Below are positions 50,452-64,000 of a DNA stretch of 64,000 nucleotides, piece after piece. Positions within the stretch are counted from its first letter, which is position 1; the number at the start of each line of letters is the position of its first letter. The notes beneath the pieces were generated by a model. It saw only the letters and a program-made list of their open reading frames with translations. It was not told the origin of the DNA and did no database searches. The position numbers and the translations under genes were made by a program. The stretch is from Arenicellales bacterium (GTDB lineage: Bacteria; Pseudomonadota; Gammaproteobacteria; Arenicellales; JAJDZL01): positions 104,932 through 168,931 of the forward strand of contig CAXXFC010000006.1 in NCBI GenBank assembly GCA_963662635.2, written 5' to 3'.

Positions 50452-50553
50452 TCGTTTCAGCCTGATGTGCGCATCCCCGGTCGTGAACTGCCAGTATACC
50501 CTCACCGGCAGATGATCCTGGTCCACCTGCCTCCTCCTCACTTACCTCTCGCA

Positions 50554-51273
50554 TCACTGCGCCTGCTGCTGTCCACGCCCCTTATCCGCGACCAGTCGCA
50601 GATGTCGCGGCACCGCCCGTCGCACGACACCATTCGCGCCATAATCGCCGCACGGCCTGAACCCCATGGGCGGCCGGGTCCACTCGAACACGCCGTCCGA
50701 CACGTCAATCAGGTGAATGCCCGATTCCCACACAAGCTCACGCTGGTCCTTGTCGATCTCAACCACTGCAAGAATCGGATATACCTCCCTTGACTCGAAC
50801 TCGGGCTTTTCAATGCGAAAATGCCTGACCAGCCGCCACACCTGATCCAGATGCTCAGGCTCAAACTTGCTCTTGACCTCCACTATATAGGCCGCTCCGG
50901 TGCCGTTGCGGGCGATACCCCAGCCATCCAGCTGCAGGTTTCCGCGCTCGTACGACTCCATGTAGTCGGCATCGAAATGCTCGTCCAGTACCCGCCGGAC
51001 GGAGGGTTCCACAAGCGCCTCGGTGTAGCTTCCGAACTTGTTGTTGTGTCCGCCGATCTGCTTGCCGTGCTCTTTCGCCGTCGCGGCCAGCTTCGTAGCC
51101 GTCGCATTCACCTTCGCAATCTTTTTACCGAGTTTCTTCCATTTCTTATCGGACCGCTTCCACCTTTCTTCGCGTTCCTCTTGCATTTTGACGACACGCT
51201 GATTGATCCGCTCGGTCTCCTCGCGTATCTTCTGAATCCTTTCCTCAGTCGTCAGATTCTCCTGTTCCGGCAT
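50554..51273 (-). CDS. Coiled-coil + putative PD-(D/E)xK nuclease-fold protein (element ORF, copy B)
   Basis: ATG 51273 (MPEQEN...) is preceded by GAGGTGC. It is a paralogue of 31003..31746. The coiled-coil segment is ~7 aa shorter and diverged, and the last ~9 aa differ. Confidence 0.75.
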   Translation of the reverse strand: MPEQENLTTEERIQKIREETERINQRVVKMQEEREERWKRSDKKWKKLGKKIAKVNATATKLAATAKEHGKQIGGHNNKFGSYTEALVEPSVRRVLDEHFDADYMESYERGNLQLDGWGIARNGTGAAYIVEVKSKFEPEHLDQVWRLVRHFRIEKPEFESREVYPILAVVEIDKDQRELVWESGIHLIDVSDGVFEWTRPPMGFRPCGDYGANGVVRRAVPRHLRLVADKGRGQQQAQ

Positions 51274-51492
51274 CTTCGGCACCTCGCATGTCAAGTTGAT
51301 TTCCCCGTCGGCAAAATCCAGTCAAATGTCTGATGACCGGTCCGGTCTCCATGATACTACGATACGGCGAATTGATCGGGTCGGATTGCCCAATTGGAGA
51401 TCCCTGTCGCCGGGCAGTCGGACCGGGATCGACTGTCCGCAACGACAGAACCGCAATTCACAACCGCTGGTGCGCGCTTCACACTGACAAAA

Positions 51493-52415: not shown

Positions 52416-52760
52416 GAGTGAATGAAGACTGAAAGAAGTCGCGCAATTATTACTTGATTCTCATACTTTTTGGGTGGCTAACCGATGACAAGCGACTCTC
52501 CAAGAAAGCACAAGATTCAACTCGCGACTCGAAACAGGTGTTTTCGTCAGTTTGATTTGGAGCTGCTTTGGAAATGTGAAAATCTAAGGTTGATCGCTAA
52601 AGGTGCAATAGGTTTTATCGGCAAACTGATTCGGAATACGATTTGATGGTTGACTTGTAGACCAGCTACCATAAAGGCTCATCTGCAACTTTCACGAAGC
52701 ATGCAAGCCAAGAACTCTTCCAGACATTTCAATGCTGTGCGACCGTAGGCAGATCTACAC
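52412..52760 (+). pseudogene. vapC: VapC (PIN) toxin remnant, heavily decayed
   Basis: ATGA overlaps the antitoxin stop. Fragments in three frames: LLLDSHTFW, WLTDDKRLSKKAQDSTRDSKQVF, LELLWKCENLRLIAKG. They follow the PIN pattern LLLDTH.flW......LS..A...i.......vS..S.WE..iK...gkL. The 3' limit is uncertain. Confidence 0.55.
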
Positions 52761-52788
52761 CCGTTCAGATACAGCATCTGGCGCTCGA

Positions 52789-55700
52789 CTACTCTCTTCT
52801 CCCTTCAATCAACATCACAAGAGTCGGCAGAATGAACAGCGTGAATAGACCTGCAAATATCAGCCCACCTATCATGCTGACAACGAATGGTACCATATTC
52901 AACAGTGCTTCACTGCGCTCATATAGAAGTGGAGATAAACCAAGAATTGTGGTTAGACTAGTCAAAAACACCGCCCGAAATCGATGATGCATTGCTCCTG
53001 ATGCGATAGCGATAGCCGCAACATCGGGATTGGCCTTCCGCATTGTGTTGTATCTGTCGAGCAAAACAAGCGCGTCATTCACGATCACGCCCGACACCCC
53101 GACAACACCGAAGATTGACATGGTTGTGAAGTCCCAGCCGAGTATCCAGTGACTGAATATGGAACCGGAAAGCGCGATAGGGATACCAAATACAACAATA
53201 AGGGGTTTCCAGTAGCTTCGCAAGAAGGCCGCAACCAATGCATACATTGCAAGCAGTGCCAGGGGTACTACAATGGCCAACACCTTGAACATCTTGATTT
53301 CGTTGCGAATTCCTCCATCGATCTTGACTGTCAAGTCCGGATACTTTTCAAGCAAATTCGTTATGTATGTGTCTGAGATTTTTCTTCTCAATTTGATCGG
53401 AGCCACGGTGGCGACATCGGCGAAGCCTTGGACGAAGGCTGCATTCTCCCCGTTAATTCGGTTCAAAATGGCCAGTTCCCGCGTTTCGCTGATTTCTGCA
53501 ATTTCTGACAGAGGAGTCTCTCGACCAGACGAAGTACGAATTCTTTCAGTTGTAAACGCACTCAAATTATCTCTTTGGTCTTGAGGGTAACGAATTACGA
53601 CTTTAATCTCATCACGTTTTCTTTGGATCCGTTGAACTTCCAAACCATGGAAGCTTGCGCGCAATTGTGCTCCTAAACCAGCGGGTGTTATCCCGGCCAG
53701 CACGCCTTCCGGATTCAAATCGACTTTGATGTGACGCTTGCCTAAACTCATATTGTCTGTCAGACCGTAAATGCCGGGTTCGGTTTCAAGCATTTCCCTG
53801 AAATCGGCTGTGGCAGATTTTAATACTTCTCGATCTGAATGTCGTAGTGAGTAAGCAACATTGAAAATCAAAGGAAATGTGGATGATTGAAACTCAAGTC
53901 GCTCGATGGGAGGAGTGAGCCCGATATTCTCACGCCATGTGCGTTCGAATTCCGGAACGGAAAATTTTCGAAGCGGTGGATCATTCAAATTTACATGAAC
54001 CGATGCGATATGACTATTGCCCGAAGATTGATCGCCATGTCTACCAATACTTTGGACCGATTTGATCGGTACTCCGACAACTATGCTGATTGACTTGATC
54101 GGATCACCTTCAAACTGTTCATCTGTCAGTTCGGCCGCTCTGGCAATTCGTTTTGCCTCGACCAAAGTATCGGCAAAATGCGTACCAACCGGCATCTTAA
54201 TTTCAGCTGCAATTTTTCCGGAGACGTAACGCGATTGGTCGATCAATATGACGCGTACTGCATCTGAACCGATGAGCAGGAATGATACGATTACGACAAT
54301 GGCACTAACAATCGGAGTCAAAACAGTGTGACGAACACACAGCGAAACGATAGGAGCGATCACTCGTGATCGAAAGTTGTCCAGCGATAGTCTGACGCGG
54401 GCCTGTAAATCGCGAAGCGGTGAGCGGCTCCAGGGTTTTTCCTTGGAAAGATGGGCTGGCAAAATGAACAATGCCTCAACCAGCGAAACCAGTAGAACAA
54501 GAAATACGACATATGGAACAGCATTTAGAATCTGATAGCGCTCAGCAGTGATAAACAGAAACGGAATGAACGCAATGACTGTTGTGATCGCACCAATCGT
54601 AATCGGCCACGCTACTTCCTTCGCGCCGGATATCGCGGCCTCGAGAGCGTTCTTATCGCTTTGTCGTCTGACCGCAATGTTCTCACCAACCACGACAGCA
54701 TCATCGACAACAATTCCGATCATCAGAAAAAACGCAAAAACCGTACTTAGATTGACCGTCAAGTCAATCGTCGGGAAAAGTAATAGTGCACCAATGAAGG
54801 ACAACGGAATTCCGACGGTAATCCAGGTAGCGAGTCGAAGATCAAAGATCGCGACTAGACAGATGAATACAATAACGAGTCCGATCAGACTGTTCGATAT
54901 ATGTCGTCCCATTTGCTCAAGAGTGAAACCTGCCCGATCGTTCCAAATCGCTACCTTAATATGTTCTGGAAATGACTTTTTCGCCAGCCATGACAGAACA
55001 CTCTCCCTTATTTCGTCGATCGACTGACTCTCTTCCGCAGTAACATTCGCAAATACGGTAGGGATTCCGCTCAATTCCGAATGAATTTCGTAATCAGCGA
55101 AACCATCTGTAACAGTTGCGATTTGACCAAGTGTAATGACTGATCCGTTCAGTTTCTTAATGATCGGGATATTCTCAAATTCTTCGCCTGTAGTACGTTT
55201 TGAAATACTGTGAAGAACAATAGCGCCGGAATCGGTATTCAATTCTCCAAACGAAAGATTGATCGAGTCACGATTGATTTTGCTTGCGATTTCTGCAAAC
55301 GACAAGTTGTAACGCCGCAACTCTTCATCATTTAACTCAATAGTAATTTCGCGATCTCTTATGCCTTTCAATTCCACTTGCTGAGAGATTTCCGGTAGTT
55401 CCAGGAGTTCATGCTGCACTTCCTCAGCGGCTATTCGCAACTCATTTTCCGTTGCCAATTCCGATGAAATCGCGAGAGTCAATACGTCAACTTTACGTTT
55501 TATCAGTGTTATTTCAGGCTTTTCGGCACTTGGAGGAGGGAAACGATTGATTGCGTCGATAGAGTTGGTAACGTCATTGAGAACAACATCCGGATCAGCA
55601 AAGGTCTCAAGCTGGATGGTAATTTTTCCGAATCCTTGTTTAGCTTCAGAGATAACTCGGTCGACACCGCTAAGCCCGAGAACACTCTCCTCGACGCGAC

Positions 55701-55899
55701 GATTGATATCCTCTTCAATCTCTTTCGGTGTAGAACCTGGGGAAGGAATTATGACTGTGATTGTTCGAAGGTCCAATTTCGGCACATTTTGTACCGGTAG
55801 CTGATTCGCGGTATAAAGTCCACCGATGATGATAAACATCATAAGCAGATGTGCCGCAACCCTATTCTCGGCGAAATAGGCGATCAATCCTTTACTCAC
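52789..55899 (-). CDS. RND efflux transporter permease (AcrB/HAE family)
   Basis: 1036 aa with a 12-TM, two-large-loop layout. N-terminus IAYFAENRVAAHLLMMFIIIGG, plus conserved GIVVDDAVVVGENI and VIVNDALVLLD motifs. Confidence 0.9.
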   Translation of the reverse strand: MSKGLIAYFAENRVAAHLLMMFIIIGGLYTANQLPVQNVPKLDLRTITVIIPSPGSTPKEIEEDINRRVEESVLGLSGVDRVISEAKQGFGKITIQLETFADPDVVLNDVTNSIDAINRFPPPSAEKPEITLIKRKVDVLTLAISSELATENELRIAAEEVQHELLELPEISQQVELKGIRDREITIELNDEELRRYNLSFAEIASKINRDSINLSFGELNTDSGAIVLHSISKRTTGEEFENIPIIKKLNGSVITLGQIATVTDGFADYEIHSELSGIPTVFANVTAEESQSIDEIRESVLSWLAKKSFPEHIKVAIWNDRAGFTLEQMGRHISNSLIGLVIVFICLVAIFDLRLATWITVGIPLSFIGALLLFPTIDLTVNLSTVFAFFLMIGIVVDDAVVVGENIAVRRQSDKNALEAAISGAKEVAWPITIGAITTVIAFIPFLFITAERYQILNAVPYVVFLVLLVSLVEALFILPAHLSKEKPWSRSPLRDLQARVRLSLDNFRSRVIAPIVSLCVRHTVLTPIVSAIVVIVSFLLIGSDAVRVILIDQSRYVSGKIAAEIKMPVGTHFADTLVEAKRIARAAELTDEQFEGDPIKSISIVVGVPIKSVQSIGRHGDQSSGNSHIASVHVNLNDPPLRKFSVPEFERTWRENIGLTPPIERLEFQSSTFPLIFNVAYSLRHSDREVLKSATADFREMLETEPGIYGLTDNMSLGKRHIKVDLNPEGVLAGITPAGLGAQLRASFHGLEVQRIQRKRDEIKVVIRYPQDQRDNLSAFTTERIRTSSGRETPLSEIAEISETRELAILNRINGENAAFVQGFADVATVAPIKLRRKISDTYITNLLEKYPDLTVKIDGGIRNEIKMFKVLAIVVPLALLAMYALVAAFLRSYWKPLIVVFGIPIALSGSIFSHWILGWDFTTMSIFGVVGVSGVIVNDALVLLDRYNTMRKANPDVAAIAIASGAMHHRFRAVFLTSLTTILGLSPLLYERSEALLNMVPFVVSMIGGLIFAGLFTLFILPTLVMLIEGRRE

Positions 55900-56030
55900 A
55901 TTGTCTCCCGAATTCGGATATTGCTGCCATCATGATTGACTCTTAGTCGTCCTGGCGAGGTATAGACAACACAGAATCTCATCGGGTGGCAAAAGTCGTC
56001 TCAATCGCAATCGAAAATCCAGTTTGAAAC

Positions 56031-57149
56031 TTACTGCAATTTGTTCACAGTTACCGCCTCACCTTTCGACAAACCCGGATATAAACCGATTACAAGCCCG
56101 TCGGCTGTGTCAAATGGCTCGACAACCCAGTTTTCATCGGTGATCGCAACCGTATCTGGCGAGCGAACGTCTACAACACCGTCCTGAATCACCCAAACTT
56201 TTCTATCAGAATCCATGACACCCATCGGCAAGACATAGACGTCGTCGTAACTCGGGCCATCAAGCGAAATTTCTGCAAACATTCCGGGAAGCGGTAAATC
56301 CTCTTTCGGAATGCTTTCATCAAATCGAAAATATACCCTGATCAGACGGGTGTCTGGTGCTACGACGGTGGATATGCGTTCGATTTGTGCATCATATGCT
56401 TTGCCACCAACTGTTATTGTCGCACCCCTGCCTACAGCTGGGTCCAAATCCTCCAGCAAATGTGTTTCGATCGGAGCGCTGACTTGCAAAGCCTCTAGTC
56501 GATAGCCTCTTCCTAAAATCGATGCATCTGCACCTGCATACTCATGGGGTCCTACCAATTCTCCAACTTCTACGTCTGAGCCAATCACGCGAATTTCATA
56601 TGGCAGGGAAATTTGGGTTTTCCCCAGATTCAGTTGTGCCATCCTTAAACGCGTTTCCAGCAATCGAATACGTGCATCAATTCTAGATGTATCTTTCTCC
56701 GTGTCGTTCGCTACCGATTCCCGTTTCTGTTTTGCAATCTGCAACAATGCATGTGCTTCATCGACGCGTAATTGGTACTCAGAAGGATCAATTCTGACGA
56801 AAACCTCATTGGCCGCAATCGTTCCACCATTTCGGAAGTTTTTCGAAACCCAAGCGATTCGGCCTCGTGCTTCGGTTCTCACAACCACGCGGTCGTCTAG
56901 AGTGACATTTCCTGTTTTTTTGACCTGTAAGGTGATTTGTTGTGTTTGCGGCTGTTTCATCACGCTTACGGTACGCGGCGGACCAGTTTCGACTTCGTCA
57001 ACGGATACGATATCACGTTCGATTCTAGCGGGAGCTCTTGCCAGTATCAGTGCAACAACAACAATACCGATCACAAGGATCAGTTGGAGGTATCCCAACA
57101 CTCGGTTATTCTTGCTTTGATTCGGGGGATTACTTTCTTGTTCAGCCAT
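56031..57149 (-). CDS. RND efflux periplasmic adaptor (membrane fusion protein)
   Basis: An N-terminal membrane anchor, a coiled-coil hairpin region (QLRVDEAHALLQIAKQ...RLRMAQLNLGKTQI) and beta-barrel domains. It lies directly upstream of the RND pump. Confidence 0.85.
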   Translation of the reverse strand: MAEQESNPPNQSKNNRVLGYLQLILVIGIVVVALILARAPARIERDIVSVDEVETGPPRTVSVMKQPQTQQITLQVKKTGNVTLDDRVVVRTEARGRIAWVSKNFRNGGTIAANEVFVRIDPSEYQLRVDEAHALLQIAKQKRESVANDTEKDTSRIDARIRLLETRLRMAQLNLGKTQISLPYEIRVIGSDVEVGELVGPHEYAGADASILGRGYRLEALQVSAPIETHLLEDLDPAVGRGATITVGGKAYDAQIERISTVVAPDTRLIRVYFRFDESIPKEDLPLPGMFAEISLDGPSYDDVYVLPMGVMDSDRKVWVIQDGVVDVRSPDTVAITDENWVVEPFDTADGLVIGLYPGLSKGEAVTVNKLQ

Positions 57150-57517
57150 AGATTAACCAATCGTTAGAATTACAAGGGATTTGCTATCGAATTATTATGA
57201 TGTGATATGTAGATTATATGGTAGTACACCTTAACCATTCACAGTCATTACAAAATAATAACCTTTTCTCTGGAGCGAAGTATTTGTCTGTGACCGGCAT
57301 TTCATGCATCAAAATAGTTGAGGTTTAAGATGGATTCGAGGCAATGGCGCTATTTGTTTACGAACAGAATGTCAATTCAAACGAATCTAAACCAAAAACC
57401 AAAGAATAGCTACCAATCCGCGCCCGTTCTCGATCAACAAAATCACTCATATGCTGACATCATTCGTAAACCTCGATATTCATCAAAATCTCAAATCCGA
57501 AAATCCCGACGACGTGA

Positions 57518-60052
57518 TCAAAAATCAAGTTGTTTGACGAAGCTCAGGTAATTTTCAAAAGCTCGATCAACCATTGTCGGTGTCAATCCATAGTCTGCGA
57601 GATCATATTGGTGGCGGACTTCATGCTTTCTTCGTTCATCCTGCTGTTTTCGCCAATTGTTCATCCTATCGAGTGCGTTCGGTTCCATTGACCAATCAAA
57701 CCTTTTATAAATTTCCGAGACAATATTCATTGGATTCCGAACAAAATCGGAATAGTTGATATCAACCCATCTGTTCTCCAGGTCAGGATGACGGGTACGA
57801 AAATCAATCGCTCGATTCATCATGTCGCTCATCAGATTCAGCTGTTCTATACCCAGATCGAATCGTGATTGTGGCTCGAAAATCCGCAAACGAATTTTCT
57901 CTACGAGACTCATCCATGACCCCATGAATTCGGAAGGTGTGCGGTGGGTTTGTATAAAACAGGCATCCGGGTAAGATTTGATTAAATTATCGAGTTCCAT
58001 CAGGTGAAAGGGCATCTTGAGCAACCACTGCCTATCGGTCTCTACCGACTCGATCATTCGCCGTTGCCAATTGAAGTGCTGCAATACTCGACGATGATGG
58101 GAGTAAGCATACTTAGAACCAGAATTTTCCAACCAGTCATTGTATCGTGATGAGGGCCGGATTATGTTGGAGGTCCAGGATGCGAATGCAAGAGCAAGTA
58201 ATTTAATATCTTCTTCCGGTTCATCTACATCATAGGGATGTATTCCCGCAAAATTCTCCTTAAGATTTGTAGCTTCAAAATAGTCCTGCACGAAAATTCG
58301 CCGTGTGTCGTCCAGGGTGCCTGCAACTGATGCATAATTTGCATCAGGAATTACGGAAGAATACAGTTCATAGGTTCGCAATGCCCAAAATTGCGGGTCA
58401 CGAGACAGTAGTCGATGCAAAAATGTAGTACCTGTGCGATTTATTCCAAGAATGAAAACCGGCTTTGAGATTTGCTCGTTTTCTATTTCTGGATGCAAAT
58501 ATCGCTCGCGAGCAAGTTCCGCGTTTTCTCGCAGATATCTACTAATTTGAAAGACTGCCAGACCGCGCCTGGATGCTCGCCACTTTACCTTTTGGGAATT
58601 AAGGGATTCAACGGAATGCTGCAGTCCCTGCAACATCCAATCCGGGTATGTATCCTGAAATTGCACATCCATTGATTCGGCGTACAATCTGGCACGTTCA
58701 ACCAATAGATCGTAATCCAGTCTGACATCTGGCAGCGAGTAGGGCCAATTGTTGTCAGGGTTGGTCATCCAATCCCATGCACGTAAGACCTTGGTTAGAA
58801 CTTTTGGCCAGTGAATAAGTCTGGGATAGTCATTCCGAATTGCCTGATCGTCTATCTGAGACAATCTTCTCGGTTCGCGATCGTAAAACCAGTACCTGGC
58901 AAAATGATCAAGCAGTATCCAGTGACCATCTAGCGGCGAATTTTCTCCGTGTGCCAGACAAGCCTGTTTGAATTCCGGGTAAGACCCCTCTTTCAGCTGA
59001 ACACCCATATCGGCAGAATCAAGATCATAGAGACCCGGTTCAGGTTCGCAACAGTGATAGATGAGGTGCTGTCTCACAGGATTCATCGAAATTCCGCTGC
59101 AAATATCAGCCAGAATATCAACAGGGTCGCTTGGTTTTCGCGTTCCGACACCGGGTGGTGCCATTTCGACCTGCACTGCTGCAGCACTCAATCTCGCAAG
59201 AATATCCGTAGGATTGATGTAACCACTTGTTGCGATTCCGGTTATCGGCAACCGAAAAATGGCAAGCGGCATACCTGCAGCGTGGGCAAATAACAAAGCC
59301 TGTTCCGAGACCAGTTTGCTCCAAGGGTACCCGATCAATCCGAGCGGAAAATGACGTTTCATCAATTCGATGTCCGGTTGTGACTCATCCTCTATTTGGC
59401 AGGTCTCAAATTCACGTCCGAACGAACAAAAATATTCGGGAAATATACCTAGAGTCGAGGCAAAGAATACGTGTTTGAAACGTGTCTTCAAACTCAATTC
59501 AATAATGTTGCGTATACTGAACACATTGTTTCGACGCAGTTGCTTATAGGTGGCTGCGAGCGACAGAGTCGCGGCAAAATGATAGACCGCGTCAAGACGT
59601 TGACAAAGGTCAGTAAAATCCTCATCAGTCAGTCCGAGGTGATGCTTGGTAATATCACCAATAACGACGCGAATTCTATGTCTATCAATCTCTTCCCACA
59701 AATCGGTTTTCTGAAGAACAGTTTGCAATCGCATTTCACCTTCTTCAATGCTGTCAGCCCTAACTAAGCAATGCACGATCAACTCTCGATTCTGCTGCAG
59801 AAGGCCGTGCAGGAGGTAGCGACCGATGAAACCGGTGGCTCCGGTCAGAAACACCTCTCGAAAGGCAGTGGGAGACACCGCGTCGGTCGGTGGCGGGTAG
59901 GTGATGGTCTCACGGACGAAATGGCGCAAGGTGGTTATATCCTGTCGACATTGCGGTGGCAACACACCGGTCAAGGCAGGATTACCCCTGCCATGAGTCG
60001 CAACTTCGTCTACGCTCTCATTATTTGATGAAACGGGCCCCGCGAAATTCAT
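57518..60052 (-). CDS. Fusion of a thioester-reductase-type SDR domain (NAD_binding_4) and a sulfotransferase domain
   Basis: N-terminal half: FLTGATGFIGRYLL and YPWSK (YxxxK). C-terminal half: FILGINRTGTTFLHRLLSRDP (PAPS 5'-phosphosulfate-binding-loop type) and later IQTHRTPSEFMGSW. Confidence 0.7.
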   Translation of the reverse strand: MNFAGPVSSNNESVDEVATHGRGNPALTGVLPPQCRQDITTLRHFVRETITYPPPTDAVSPTAFREVFLTGATGFIGRYLLHGLLQQNRELIVHCLVRADSIEEGEMRLQTVLQKTDLWEEIDRHRIRVVIGDITKHHLGLTDEDFTDLCQRLDAVYHFAATLSLAATYKQLRRNNVFSIRNIIELSLKTRFKHVFFASTLGIFPEYFCSFGREFETCQIEDESQPDIELMKRHFPLGLIGYPWSKLVSEQALLFAHAAGMPLAIFRLPITGIATSGYINPTDILARLSAAAVQVEMAPPGVGTRKPSDPVDILADICSGISMNPVRQHLIYHCCEPEPGLYDLDSADMGVQLKEGSYPEFKQACLAHGENSPLDGHWILLDHFARYWFYDREPRRLSQIDDQAIRNDYPRLIHWPKVLTKVLRAWDWMTNPDNNWPYSLPDVRLDYDLLVERARLYAESMDVQFQDTYPDWMLQGLQHSVESLNSQKVKWRASRRGLAVFQISRYLRENAELARERYLHPEIENEQISKPVFILGINRTGTTFLHRLLSRDPQFWALRTYELYSSVIPDANYASVAGTLDDTRRIFVQDYFEATNLKENFAGIHPYDVDEPEEDIKLLALAFASWTSNIIRPSSRYNDWLENSGSKYAYSHHRRVLQHFNWQRRMIESVETDRQWLLKMPFHLMELDNLIKSYPDACFIQTHRTPSEFMGSWMSLVEKIRLRIFEPQSRFDLGIEQLNLMSDMMNRAIDFRTRHPDLENRWVDINYSDFVRNPMNIVSEIYKRFDWSMEPNALDRMNNWRKQQDERRKHEVRHQYDLADYGLTPTMVDRAFENYLSFVKQLDF

Positions 60053-60064
60053 CTATATCAATAC

Positions 60065-61783
60065 CTAGCCGACATGTTTCAATCTTTCGGTTGCAGACTG
60101 ATGGAAATCTTCCAGAGCATCGTCTATACCGTCGCCGGTGTAGCGATACTCACCAGGAAAGGATGCGTAACGCGCCTCTATTCGCGCAAACATCTCCAGC
60201 TTGCGGTTCTGAATTTCTCGCTGGCTCCGTGGCCGCGCTTTCTTGAACAGCGAAAGTTCCGCTTTCAACTCCTGCTTGAAGTCGTGGATCGCTACCTGCT
60301 GACGGGTAAACTTTTCGAAATGGTACCCTTGGACAGCCAGTTCAATCGCTTTGACAAGCATACGCGGGTAATGTTTGGAGACTTCCGCGATGAACTGGAG
60401 ATAAGTCGGCACCTGTTCTTCCGAAAGGCAGCGACGCAGACCCATGATATCCATATAGATCGCGGTCTTGGTTTTCGGTTTCGACAAATGGGGTACCGGC
60501 TTTAGGTGCTTGATCAATGTCAGGCACCGCTGGAAATAGTTCTCCAAGGTGGGGTCGTAGAGTGTTGTGGTGACGCGTCGGTAGCCGTCAAGTAAAATGT
60601 CCGGGTCCATCTCGGGCCGAAAATTGAGTGTCATTGAACTGGTTCCGAGGGGAACATCCAGAAGACGATTCTCCGCCTCAAAACGGCGGTACATATCTGT
60701 TCCTTTCAGTGCGCCTAAAAGGTAAATCGGCGCCGCAGGGATGCCGGTTCCCTGAATAAAATCGATTTGGGCATCGAACACGCCTTCATCGTCGCTATCT
60801 AGTCCCAGGATGAACCCGCCCTGCACCTGCATTCCCTTCTTCTGGATCCTGCGCACCGAGTTGAAGAGGTAGTTTTCTTCTCGCTTGCTGACATTCTGCG
60901 GTTTCTTGGTCTTGATCAAAGCTTCTGGGTTAGGGGACTCGATACCGAGAAAAACTGTGTCGAAACCAGCCCCAACCATTGCATCCATCAACGCCTCCAA
61001 GCGGGCGAGATTTACGCTCGCTTCCGTGCTCAGAGAGAAGGGGTAGCCGCGCTCCTTTTGCCATTCGCCGAGCACTGGCAGGAGTTTCATTGCTTCTCGC
61101 TTGTTGCCAATGAAGTTGTCATCGACCAGAAATACCGGACCCCGCCAACCTAAACTGTAGAGAAGTTCGAACTCTTCCACCATCTGCGACGGTGTCTTGG
61201 TTCGCGCCACCCGACCGTATAACTTGGTGATGTCGCAAAATTCGCAGTCGAATGGACAACCCCGGGAAAACTGCAAACCGATCGAGTGGTAGTCATTCAT
61301 GTTGATCAAGTCGAAACGTGGCAACGGAGTCCGGGTGATGTCAGGTTTTCGCGGTTCTCGGTATATTGCCTTGGCGGTACCACTTTCCAGGTCTTCTAGA
61401 AATTTTGGGAAGTATTCCTCAACCTCGTCCAAAACAAAATGGTTCACGCCTTTAATCTCCTCGTGATATGTGGTGGGGTGAGGGCCACCTGACACCACCG
61501 GAACACCAGCTCGATTGCATCGATCGATGACAATCTGTAGGGACACCTTTTGCACGATCATGGTTGACGTGAACGCGATGTCTGCCCACTCGAGATCCGA
61601 ATCTTGCAAGGGAGCTACGTTAAGGTCGACTAGCCGAAGGTCATATTTCGGCGGAAAAATGGCGGCTATAGTGAGTAGACCGAGGGGTGGAAAGGCAGCC
61701 TTTTTTCCGATGATTTCGAGGGCTGCCGTCATTCCCCAATAGGTCGGTGGGTGTTCCGGATAAATTAAAAGCGCATTCGGCAT
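60065..61783 (-). CDS. B12-binding radical SAM protein (DUF4070-type C-terminus)
   Basis: An N-terminal cobalamin-binding-like domain (LIYPEHPP...PPLGLLTIAAIF). The radical SAM cluster motif CPFDCEFC (Cx3Cx2C) sits in SRGCPFDCEFCDI. Confidence 0.8.
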   Translation of the reverse strand: MPNALLIYPEHPPTYWGMTAALEIIGKKAAFPPLGLLTIAAIFPPKYDLRLVDLNVAPLQDSDLEWADIAFTSTMIVQKVSLQIVIDRCNRAGVPVVSGGPHPTTYHEEIKGVNHFVLDEVEEYFPKFLEDLESGTAKAIYREPRKPDITRTPLPRFDLINMNDYHSIGLQFSRGCPFDCEFCDITKLYGRVARTKTPSQMVEEFELLYSLGWRGPVFLVDDNFIGNKREAMKLLPVLGEWQKERGYPFSLSTEASVNLARLEALMDAMVGAGFDTVFLGIESPNPEALIKTKKPQNVSKREENYLFNSVRRIQKKGMQVQGGFILGLDSDDEGVFDAQIDFIQGTGIPAAPIYLLGALKGTDMYRRFEAENRLLDVPLGTSSMTLNFRPEMDPDILLDGYRRVTTTLYDPTLENYFQRCLTLIKHLKPVPHLSKPKTKTAIYMDIMGLRRCLSEEQVPTYLQFIAEVSKHYPRMLVKAIELAVQGYHFEKFTRQQVAIHDFKQELKAELSLFKKARPRSQREIQNRKLEMFARIEARYASFPGEYRYTGDGIDDALEDFHQSATERLKHVG

Positions 61784-61809
61784 AACGGTATTCTCCTTTG
61801 ACGGTCGTC

Positions 61810-64000
61810 TCAGAACTCGTGAACTGCCTCGTATCCCGACTCGATGTCCGAGCGCTTCGGAAAATGATCTTGGAACGCGTTGGCGAATGCCGACGGCACG
61901 CGACGCACCCGGTATTCGACTGCTTGCGAGGCTTCCCCGACGACACCCGCGTCTGTTTCGGACGGATCCTCATCACTGTCCTCCTCTCCATGCACAATCG
62001 CACGCGCCAGTGAGAAGCAAGAGGCGGTGGTCATCAGTTCCAGCGCACTTACTTGATAGTTGAACTCAGTTTGGATGAAGGTTCCGAGCTCAGCGACTGA
62101 GATAGAAGTGAGTCCGTAGCTGGACAAGGGTTCCACAATTTCCACGCTCCCTTCCTCGTGGCCGCACAGTTCGGTAACCTTTTCGGCGATCTGCATAACC
62201 ACTGTTTCCTCGGTAATCTGACCACCTGCGTCGATCTCGAAGGCATCTTGGTTGTTCATCAGACGTCCGGTGCGCATGTAATCAGACGAGTTGAAAGTCC
62301 ATGGCGGTCTAGTGAACAGTATCGTCATCAGATGATCTTCAACTGCTGATGAACGCAGAGCGTAGTCCAGGTTGCCAACCGCTGAATCACTACTTACAGG
62401 CGGAGTGCCCACCGCTCGCATCATACGCAGGAGATGGATGTTCCGGTTGGCCATACCAACCTCCGCTACAGCGGCTATGCTGTAAGAGAGTCCAGGCAAT
62501 CCATTCCGACGCCTCCAGGCGACCAATCCGTCCACGAATGCATTGGCAGCACTGTAGTTGATTTGTCCGAAATTGCCAAACTGAGCGGAAATCGACGAAA
62601 ACATCACGAAGTGGTCTAGCGCGAGCCCTGCCGTTGCGCGATGAAGATGGAGTGCACCATGTGCTTTAGGCGCGAAAACCCGCGTCACTGATTCGACGGA
62701 GGTATCGGCCAGAAGGCGGTCGTCCAACGTCCCAGCAAGGTGGAAGACACCCTTCAGCGGCTTCTTCAACTGCGCAACACAACGCTGGACATCCTCTTCC
62801 CGCGACACGTCGCCCGGGACAATATCGATATCGACTTCTTTTTTCATGTTGTTCAGGGTGGTTGAACGCCGAACCCAATCGACACTGCGACGGCGCTTGG
62901 GATCTCGGTCCATCAACGTGAGATGGCGAGCGCCGGAAGCGACCAAATATGACAGCACCCGTAACCCAAATCCGCCCAACCCTCCAGTCACGAGATAAGT
63001 GGCATGGGGATTAAGAAATGGTCGTGTATCTGCAATCGGAAGCTCCGAATTGGTGGGCACCTCAGGCGCATTCAGGACAAGTTTTCCTTGGTGCTGGCCA
63101 GCGGTCATCATACGTAAAGCCTTGGCGTATTCTCCATAGGGAAAGACTGTAGTCGGCAAGGGCGGTACCGCGCCCTTTTCAATCAACTCCAGACAAGCAC
63201 AGGACAGATCGCGTGAAAGATACGGTTCGTCCATCATCAGCCGATCCATATCGATGGCCGCAAAGCGCAGGTTCTTGCGGAATATACGCATACCGAGATT
63301 GTTGTCCGCGTAGACATCAACCTTGCCGATCTCGCAATGCCAGCCGGATGGCCGCAGCGACCGCAGGCATAGTTCTATGTGGCGACCCGCCAAGGAATTT
63401 AGCGTCACATCGACTCCTTCACCGTCGGTCGCCGACATCAGGCCTTCGTACCAGTCGTAGCTGTGCGAATCGAACACTGCAGTTGCGCCTAGTGCTATCA
63501 ATTGTTCGCGCTTGTTCTCGTCACCGGCGGTGGCGTAAATCTCGGCCCCTAAGTATTTCGAGAGTGCGATTGCAGCCTGACCGACACCACCCATTGCCGA
63601 GTGGATCAGCACGCGCTGACCCTTCTGTAGGCGCGCCAAGTGGATAAGCGCATAATAGGCAGTCACGTAGACTGACAGTATCGATGCCGCTGATGCCATG
63701 CTCAAGTGGTCGGGCTTCCTGAAAACTCGGTGCTGATGGACATTGACTTGGTTGGCTATGCAACCGCCGTGAGTGAAGATCACCTCGTCACCGATACGAC
63801 AATGCTCGACATCAATACCAATGCGTGTGACCACTCCACTACCCTCCATACCAACTTCGCGCCCCATCGCCGAACGCTCATAGGCCATAACTGGAAGCAG
63901 CCCCAGCGTAACCATGACATCGCGGAAGTTCAATCCCGTCGCCTTCACATCGATCTCGACATCGGAAGGCCCGAGTACCGGTAATTCACAGGTTTTCAGT
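61810..64000 (-). CDS. Type I polyketide/fatty-acid synthase-like protein, C-terminal ER-KR-ACP part (5' end outside window)
   Basis: The frame stays open upstream of the listed start to the window edge (..LKTCELPVLGPSDVEIDVKATGLNFRDV). ER domain (GGVGQAAIALSKYLGAEIYATAG), KR domain (YLVTGGLGGFGLRVLSYL, YSAANAF), and an ACP with the Ser in YGLTSISVAEL. Confidence 0.8.
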   Translation of the reverse strand, partial: LKTCELPVLGPSDVEIDVKATGLNFRDVMVTLGLLPVMAYERSAMGREVGMEGSGVVTRIGIDVEHCRIGDEVIFTHGGCIANQVNVHQHRVFRKPDHLSMASAASILSVYVTAYYALIHLARLQKGQRVLIHSAMGGVGQAAIALSKYLGAEIYATAGDENKREQLIALGATAVFDSHSYDWYEGLMSATDGEGVDVTLNSLAGRHIELCLRSLRPSGWHCEIGKVDVYADNNLGMRIFRKNLRFAAIDMDRLMMDEPYLSRDLSCACLELIEKGAVPPLPTTVFPYGEYAKALRMMTAGQHQGKLVLNAPEVPTNSELPIADTRPFLNPHATYLVTGGLGGFGLRVLSYLVASGARHLTLMDRDPKRRRSVDWVRRSTTLNNMKKEVDIDIVPGDVSREEDVQRCVAQLKKPLKGVFHLAGTLDDRLLADTSVESVTRVFAPKAHGALHLHRATAGLALDHFVMFSSISAQFGNFGQINYSAANAFVDGLVAWRRRNGLPGLSYSIAAVAEVGMANRNIHLLRMMRAVGTPPVSSDSAVGNLDYALRSSAVEDHLMTILFTRPPWTFNSSDYMRTGRLMNNQDAFEIDAGGQITEETVVMQIAEKVTELCGHEEGSVEIVEPLSSYGLTSISVAELGTFIQTEFNYQVSALELMTTASCFSLARAIVHGEEDSDEDPSETDAGVVGEASQAVEYRVRRVPSAFANAFQDHFPKRSDIESGYEAVHEF

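Follow-up and report, generated by a model that had tools for sequence, protein, structure and literature searches.

Marine-sponge bacteria gave the name to the gene cluster swf, which encodes a polyketide synthase (PKS)/fatty acid synthase (FAS) (swfA), a thioester reductase-sulfotransferase fusion (R-ST; swfB) and a B12 radical S-adenosylmethionine (SAM) enzyme (swfC), and for which a possibly methylated alkyl sulfate has already been proposed as the product (Della Sala et al., 2013; PMC3908369). Here, we analyzed a 64,000-nt stretch of an Arenicellales genome (contig CAXXFC010000006.1, positions 104,932 to 168,931; hereafter the window) and found that, judged by architecture and published motifs, the genes at its end are a copy of this cluster in the order swfA-swfC-swfB, cut by the window end.

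The published examples of swf comprise the fosmids PS11G3 and PSA11D7 and the poribacterial genes POR_0547-0550, among which SwfC is optional, and SwfA was characterized by the ketosynthase (KS) signatures HATGT and a non-canonical DPQxR and by the acyltransferase (AT) signatures GHSSGE, IAFH and QCALVEL (PMC3908369). Swf-like gene-cluster families were later described by Loureiro et al. (2022; PMC9426513) and also in ‘Thalassonella’ (PMC10227082), so that such clusters, their function still unassigned, are on record from Nitrospirota, Latescibacterota, Acidobacteriota and ‘Thalassonella’. The swf cluster is thus one of the few biosynthetic clusters common to many unrelated sponge symbionts, and its product is still sought after more than 10 years; in the literature on swf, we found no paper after 2013 that identifies it. 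A statement that SwfA makes methyl-branched fatty acids (PMC9864124) is unsupported by the paper that it cites, and an older interpretation in terms of wcb/rkp capsule lipids was already rejected by the swf authors (PMC3908369).

Identification of the cluster

The open reading frame (ORF) listing shows five co-directional genes at 52789-64000 of the window, all on the minus strand, as are all features described below. Three of them are biosynthetic, namely the 3' part of swfA (61810-63999, 729 aa, open at the window end at 64000), swfC (60065-61783, 572 aa) and swfB (57518-60052, 844 aa). They are separated by gaps of 26 nt (61784-61809) and 12 nt (60053-60064), and a strong AGGAG Shine-Dalgarno site lies 9 nt ahead of the swfC ATG. 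The three tightly spaced genes reported in a preliminary description made from the sequence by itself therefore match the ORF coordinates exactly, and the domain content and gene order given there were confirmed with Pfam and NCBIfam. The absence of a thioesterase (TE) was borne out as well, as no TE domain was detected with Pfam in the five window proteins or in the full-length PKSs of relatives.

The cluster was assigned to swf because gene set and taxon spread, together with the SwfA motifs of the nearest relatives, match the 2013 description. Like the published clusters, it joins a synthase, which is monomodular in the nearest relatives, with an R-ST fusion and a B12-type radical SAM enzyme; the order PKS-radical SAM-R/ST is that of POR_0547-0550, and the occurrence of such clusters does not follow taxonomy. 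The window copy differs from the published clusters in its host order, which is not named in the swf papers, in a SwfB that falls into a long-branched clade restricted to Arenicellales, and in a pump of the membrane fusion protein (MFP)-resistance-nodulation-division (RND) type directly downstream. The host, the divergent SwfB clade and the adjacent MFP-RND pair, which is shared with the relative L001, are what is specific to the window copy. Since the cluster belongs to a known, named family whose product hypothesis was published in 2013, the preliminary finding is correct, not new.

The nearest relatives are Arenicellales metagenome-assembled genomes (MAGs) with 73-81% identity. The cluster is complete in the 75%-identical relative L001, where a divergent APS (adenosine 5'-phosphosulfate) kinase gene is accompanied by genes for a 2365-aa PKS, the radical SAM enzyme, the R-ST protein, MFP and RND; downstream of the RND gene follow toxin-antitoxin genes and then CoA-transferase, dehydrogenase and ligase genes as in the window. 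Contigs from four public runs span the region with even, DNA-like depth, and they contain 0 indels and only scattered single-nucleotide polymorphisms within swfA, swfC and swfB.

SwfA, a fully reducing synthase

The SwfA fragment comprises an enoyl reductase (ER; ~63070-63972; Pfam ADH_N and ADH_zinc_N, 1.6e-17), a ketoreductase (KR; ~62464-63003; Pfam KR, 7.8e-53) and an acyl carrier protein (ACP; ~61972-62217; Pfam PP-binding, 2e-4), followed by an acidic C-terminal tail of ~70 aa. The GGVG motif of the ER, residues S469, Y482 and N486 of the KR and Ser632 of the ACP (codon 62104-62106) are invariant or nearly so among 66 homologues. Ser632, the phosphopantetheine serine, sits in an unusual GL[T/N]S motif; published experiments showed that a Swf ACP is phosphopantetheinylated by Svp and not by the E. 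coli enzyme. The best NCBIfam match of the fragment is Pks2 (8e-109).

The fragment aligns with 78% identity to residues 1639-2365 of the 2365-aa L001 PKS, from which we infer that ~1640 codons of swfA, encoding KS, AT and dehydratase (DH), lie past the window end. Identities to the PKSs of the nearest relatives L001, L002 and L004 range from 78 to 81%, and both KS and AT are present in the upstream part of these full-length proteins. In four representative relatives, Pfam identified a single KS-AT-DH-ER-KR-ACP module. Among 65 full-length PKSs adjoining an R-ST gene, the published signatures recur (HATGT in 65, GHSSGE in 64, IAFH in 64 and QCALVEL in 48), and the canonical KS motifs DPQQR and HGTGT are found in none. 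The PKSs of L001, L002 and L004 carry all published SwfA motifs, L002 with the variant QCALVEM. We also considered whether a C-methyltransferase domain of the PKS replaces the radical SAM enzyme in clusters that lack it; this was rejected, as no such domain was found at E≤1e-5 in the four representative PKSs.

SwfB, a thioester reductase-sulfotransferase fusion

SwfB combines a predicted thioester reductase (R) domain (~59033-59869; residues 69-316, Pfam NAD_binding_4, 8.6e-47) with a predicted sulfotransferase (ST) domain (~57557-58495; residues 531-790, Pfam Sulfotransfer_3, 2.8e-34). The motifs expected for catalysis are invariant in 74 homologues in both halves (R: TGxTGFxG at 70-77, S199, Y242 and K246; ST: R539-T-G-T-T543, K679, H683, T702-H-R704 and S712), which upholds the earlier view of one protein with reductase and sulfotransferase parts, although the score for the thioester reductase family TIGR01746 (179.5) stays under the family cut-off of 213.35. 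The fusion itself is invariant in >560 full-length homologues. An AlphaFold2 model of SwfB reached a mean predicted local distance difference test score (pLDDT) of 87.9 and a predicted TM-score (pTM) of 0.84, and the latter suggests that R and ST are held in a defined arrangement suited to the hand-over of an alcohol.

The R half is nearest to MxaA, both by sequence (E 2e-32) and by fold (Foldseek 4e-20, TM 0.76-0.81), and its further structural relatives include the PKS thioreductase domain 8v1x of Streptomyces coelicolor, equally close in fold, and the mycobacterial Nrp R domain. MxaA and the mycobacterial Nrp R domain are four-electron, alcohol-forming reductases. With MxaA (4u7w/4w4t), Nrp R (4dqv) and 8v1x, the R half shares a short-chain dehydrogenase/reductase fold, the TGxxGxxG motif, an S/T-Y-K triad and a C-terminal subdomain (TM 0.76-0.83); it differs from them in being free-standing from the synthase, so that it would act in trans, and in being fused to an ST.

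The ST half is nearest to Stf1 of Mycobacterium tuberculosis (7e-32, TM 0.84) and to Stf9 of M. avium. A comparison with the ST of CurM and the olefin synthases (OLS) had been suggested; that ST is absent from the PDB sequence matches at E≤1e-3 and from the top 50 fold matches. Kinship of the SwfB ST with the CurM/OLS type was therefore ruled out, given its best matches to Stf1 and Stf9 and given that no TE follows it.

SwfC, a putative cobalamin-dependent radical SAM enzyme

SwfC consists of an N-terminal B12-binding-like domain, a radical SAM domain (Pfam Radical_SAM, 4e-14) and a C-terminal DUF4070 domain (2e-21). Of the earlier assignment as a cobalamin-type radical SAM enzyme, the radical SAM part stands, with the cluster motif C176xxxC180xxC183 (61235-61258), while cobalamin binding is putative, as the B12-binding Pfam match of 29.8 bits falls just under the gathering score of 32.1. 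Within the cluster, SwfC is the best-conserved protein, being 64-80% identical to 39 homologues across phyla with 150 invariant columns, and it belongs to a very large family whose members are 68-82% identical and are named only ‘DUF4070 domain-containing’.

All matches to named radical SAM enzymes are remote (E 1e-5 to 1e-13, 12-16% identity). The fold neighbours are mixed, with the non-methylase AprD4 on top and the methylases MgmA, CysS and TsrM behind it, and MiaB is found among the remote profile and fold relatives. AprD4 carries a B12-like domain but is not known to use cobalamin. CysS, among the nearest folds, methylates pantetheine-bound substrates. A reaction call from the fold was not accepted, because a model of such low confidence (pLDDT 68) and so mixed a set of neighbours do not allow one. 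By analogy, methylation, the commonest reaction among the remote relatives and also the published guess for SwfC, is the most likely activity. SwfC thus resembles class B radical SAM enzymes (CysS, TsrM, MgmA, HpnP/HpnR) and AprD4 in its N-terminal Rossmann-like domain, radical SAM barrel and CxxxCxxC motif, and differs in forming a very large family of its own that is remote to all of them.

Conservation of the cluster across phyla

One genome per species was scanned, which gave 79 related loci (numbered with the prefix L) in Arenicellales, Nitrospirales, Latescibacterota, Acidobacteriota, Alphaproteobacteria, Poriferihabitaceae, Binatia, Tectimicrobiota, Opitutales, Rhodothermales and others. 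These relatives are MAGs of lineages such as Poriferihabitaceae, Latescibacterota, Nitrospirales and Tectimicrobiota, and their isolate labels resemble those of what are presumably sponge-metagenome projects. Synteny was counted in those 61 loci, from more than 10 phyla, whose flanks reach 9 kb or more in both directions, considering features within 10 kb of the R-ST gene. The genes are co-conserved in these relatives: a PKS gene lies directly upstream of the R-ST gene in 58 loci, and a radical SAM gene is present in 42, between the two in 35 and elsewhere in the locus in 7, and absent from 19. Exporters of any kind were found in 19 loci, on either side and in either orientation (RND pumps in 13, transporters of the major facilitator superfamily (MFS) in 6). 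An APS kinase or a CysN-CysC fusion is encoded in 12, among them 8 of 8 Nitrospirales and 3 of 6 Arenicellales loci, and a STAS-domain protein fused or adjacent to a ~95-aa domain in 25. No aminotransferase, glycosyltransferase or other aldehyde-using gene and no TE, elimination or displacement enzyme is co-conserved at the swf loci.

Mapped on a tree of the R-ST proteins, the accessory genes need many gains or losses, at minimum 7 for the radical SAM gene, 11 for exporters, 7 for the APS kinase and 8 for STAS. For this reason the core of the cluster, as far as gene content tells, is the PKS together with the R-ST protein, and the other genes are a recurrent, exchangeable periphery. The pattern of the radical SAM gene, with at least 7 gains or losses, is by the same comparison the behaviour of a tailoring gene.

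The genes for supply of 3'-phosphoadenosine 5'-phosphosulfate (PAPS) lie downstream of the R-ST gene in L008, L009, L014, L015, L022, L036, L038, L040 and L058, and take the form of a CysN-CysC fusion in Nitrospirales. A stand-alone divergent APS kinase gene is located upstream of swf in L001 (23-598), L002 and L004, a position whose equivalent in this genome lies past the end of the window. A conserved ~95-aa domain without a Pfam match either forms part of the STAS protein (Pfam STAS, 7e-12) or comes after it, for example at L008:833-1111, L022:671-1042, L049:12753-13403 and L054:456-1140 and at ~20 other loci. The 25 loci belong to Nitrospirales, Latescibacterota, Acidobacteriota, Binatia, Rhodothermales and others; no STAS protein was found in the window or in the Arenicellales loci. 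The STAS domain of E. coli YchM has reportedly been crystallised with ACP bound, which makes a function as partner of the ACP conceivable.

Divergence of the Arenicellales SwfB

The R-ST tree places the window SwfB in a fully supported Arenicellales-only clade whose stem is long. Outside this clade the phyla are interleaved, as 27 label changes are counted where 14 would be the minimum, which fits transfer among co-resident symbionts. Identity to the main family is 49% for the window SwfB, compared with a mean of 63% among the members of that family, and the decrease is spread evenly across the R, linker and ST parts. SwfC (68% versus 72% in the family) and the SwfA C-terminus (66% versus 72%) stay near the family average, and this difference indicates that the Arenicellales lineage carries a divergent SwfB subtype, its predicted catalytic residues intact.

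Two further Arenicellales loci (L005:2805-9860 and L007:2653-9738) combine a window-type SwfB (72% and 54% identity, respectively) with a divergent SwfA and no radical SAM gene. Their SwfA proteins are 56-58% identical to the window fragment and are devoid of QCALVEL, that of L005 also of IAFH. Judged from these two loci, swf appears to have been assembled as a mosaic. The Arenicellales MAG of locus L004 (1077-22505) contains two complete tandem swf clusters of the order PKS-radical SAM-R/ST, and the two PKSs each match the window fragment with 81% identity in their C-terminal parts.

The adjacent MFP-RND pump

The genes for an MFP adaptor (56031-57149, 372 aa) and an RND permease (52789-55899, 1036 aa) follow swfB after an AT-rich spacer (57150-57517, GC 0.41), the MFP gene beginning 368 nt past the swfB stop. 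The L001 spacer is equal in length and partly conserved in sequence. The spacer probably holds the pump's own promoter; searches for promoters and terminators around the cluster, spacer included, gave no significant call, and nothing significant was found for Rfam families and repeats in the same region. The permease (Pfam ACR_tran, 1.4e-121) is 90% identical to the L001 pump, and the MFP (RND_mfp TIGR01730, 7.5e-21, under its cut-off) is 82% identical to its L001 counterpart. The window pump scores 346 bits against a cut-off of 1250 of the curated multidrug-pump models.

The RND pumps that adjoin swf in 13 of the 61 loci are 39-63% identical to the window permease and occur in Alphaproteobacteria, Poriferihabitaceae, Acidobacteriota and Arenicellales, with no fixed side or orientation relative to the cluster. 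Among the closest relatives, an MFP-RND pair stands next to swf in the window and in L001, and L002 and L004 have swf without a pump. An MFS_1 transporter gene (1.4e-42) takes the position of the pair just downstream of the R-ST gene in L023, L025, L026, L039, L043, L051, L055 and L057. These distributions suggest that an exporter of some kind has been recruited to swf repeatedly, and they make the RND permease a candidate exporter of the swf product. Of the proposal that the adjacent pump exports the product, the adjacency was thus confirmed, and the link proved to be recurrent, not universal.

Sequence variation was noted at the far end of the pump genes. A strain variant is present at 52600-52940 in three of the four runs, with a 12-nt deletion at 52600 and densely clustered substitutions that extend from the 3' end of the RND gene into the adjoining downstream DNA. 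Farther on, 50467-51400, with ORFs without a Pfam match, is a multicopy sequence, because its summed contig depth reaches 3-10 times the depth of the flanks in each of the four runs.

Proposed pathway and alternative explanations

Taken together, our results are best explained by a pathway to an exported, possibly methyl-branched alkyl sulfate, a reading to which we assign a probability of about 0.6. SwfA would act as a single, iterative, FAS-like KS-AT-DH-ER-KR-ACP module and assemble malonyl units into a saturated acyl chain attached to its ACP. SwfC, where present, would tailor the chain at an unactivated carbon, most likely by C-methylation and possibly while the chain is bound to the ACP. 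The R domain of SwfB is predicted to take the acyl thioester in trans and to reduce it with NAD(P)H via the aldehyde to the primary alcohol in a four-electron reaction, and its ST domain would then transfer sulfate from PAPS onto this alcohol to give a long-chain alkyl sulfate, maybe methyl-branched. The MFP-RND pump, or an MFS transporter in other lineages, may move the anionic amphiphile out of the inner membrane. The genes for PAPS supply and the exporters that adjoin swf support a sulfate that is retained and a destination outside the cytoplasm. The sulfated, possibly methyl-branched long-chain alcohol of the preliminary description remains the best-supported prediction.

Several points weigh against this pathway. 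The copy of swfA inside the window extends over ER-KR-ACP only, with KS-AT-DH past its end. The structural model of SwfC is weak and has the diol dehydratase AprD4 as best fold match, and the B12-binding match is under threshold. Sequence cannot separate a two-electron from a four-electron R domain, 8v1x being an equally close fold, and we know of no defined acceptor of Stf1 or Stf9. An exporter is lacking within 10 kb in 42 of the 61 loci, and genes for RND pumps are common. Moreover, a whole swf cluster expressed in E. coli BAP1 yielded no new metabolite, and a product has yet to be detected for any member of the family. Among sponge lipids, alkyl sulfates are not known to be widespread (PMC3908369).

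The last of these points would be accounted for if the sulfate were a transient leaving group, as in the logic of CurM and OLS, so that an activated alkyl sulfate is eliminated or displaced to give a 1-alkene, an ether lipid or another alkylated product, possibly with participation of the radical SAM enzyme. For CurM, activation by sulfation is established, and the swf authors refer to it (PMC3908369); the conservation of SwfC across phyla (~70% identity versus ~50-63% for SwfB) could mean a role beyond decoration. We regard this as improbable, since no TE, elimination or displacement enzyme is co-conserved, the ST is of the Stf1/Stf9 type with the CurM/OLS ST absent among its matches, about one third of the clusters have no radical SAM gene within 10 kb, and the exporters and PAPS-supply genes fit a retained sulfate. 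Slightly less remote, yet still unlikely, is that the R domain releases the aldehyde only or passes it on, and that the ST sulfates a beta- or mid-chain hydroxyl group or an unrelated acceptor such as a glycolipid. Incomplete reduction, of which iterative PKSs are capable (PMC3908369), would leave such chain hydroxyl groups. The fold match to 8v1x, as close as that to MxaA, and the undefined acceptors of Stf1 and Stf9 noted above are also compatible with this reading. The invariance of the fusion in >560 homologues and the confident packing of the two domains (pTM 0.84) instead favour consecutive action on one substrate, and no gene that would use an aldehyde is co-conserved with the cluster.

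The export step is the part of the proposed pathway that is most open to an alternative, in which the MFP-RND pair has nothing to do with swf and is a general efflux pump placed beside it by chance in this lineage. We lean against this view while giving it considerable weight: an RND pump occurs within 10 kb in just 13 of the 61 loci, the AT-rich spacer makes the pump probably a separate transcription unit, and the closest relatives L002 and L004 do without one. On the other side, pumps with 39-63% identity adjoin swf in four groups, at least 11 exporter gains or losses are required on the R-ST tree, MFS exporters hold the same place in 6 other loci, and the window pump falls far short of the multidrug-pump models, with 346 bits against 1250.

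Relation to known pathways and significance

A comparable pathway with release-associated sulfation is that of CurM and OLS, where, as in swf, a PAPS-type ST is tied to the release step of a PKS or FAS-like line. In contrast to their ACP-ST-TE arrangement, swf is devoid of a TE and has its Stf1/Stf9-like ST in a protein apart from the synthase, joined to a reductase; the predicted acceptor of SwfB is a primary alcohol formed by reduction, that of CurM and OLS a beta-hydroxyacyl-ACP. The mycobacterial sulfolipid-1 pathway (Pks2, Stf0, PapA1/2, MmpL8) likewise has an iterative, fully reducing PKS similar to mycocerosic acid synthase, a PAPS-dependent sulfation and an exporter of the RND superfamily, and mycobacterial Stf1 and Stf9 are homologous to the SwfB ST. 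Unlike sulfolipid-1, swf involves no trehalose, no PapA acyltransferases and no MmpL-type pump, its predicted release is by reduction, and the AT motif IAFH of the relatives predicts malonyl, not methylmalonyl, according to its published reading (PMC3908369).

The window copy adds no new principle to the family. Because about one third of the natural clusters are without a radical SAM gene, the two genes swfA and swfB should suffice for an unbranched product, and PAPS-supply genes and exporters may be needed in a heterologous host. An ST of the Stf1/Stf9 type in swf would give the orphan enzymes Stf1 and Stf9 their first substrate class. In a wider and more tentative view, which we consider possible although the odds are against it, swf is the core of a horizontally shared module of sponge symbionts for an exported sulfated lipid, which repeatedly recruits an exporter (RND or MFS), PAPS supply (APS kinase or CysN-CysC) and a STAS protein. 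If this is true, the swf product would be a long-chain alkyl sulfate, optionally modified by the radical SAM enzyme, that is located on or outside the cell and acts in symbiosis, and the Arenicellales clade with its diverged SwfB would make a chemically distinct variant.

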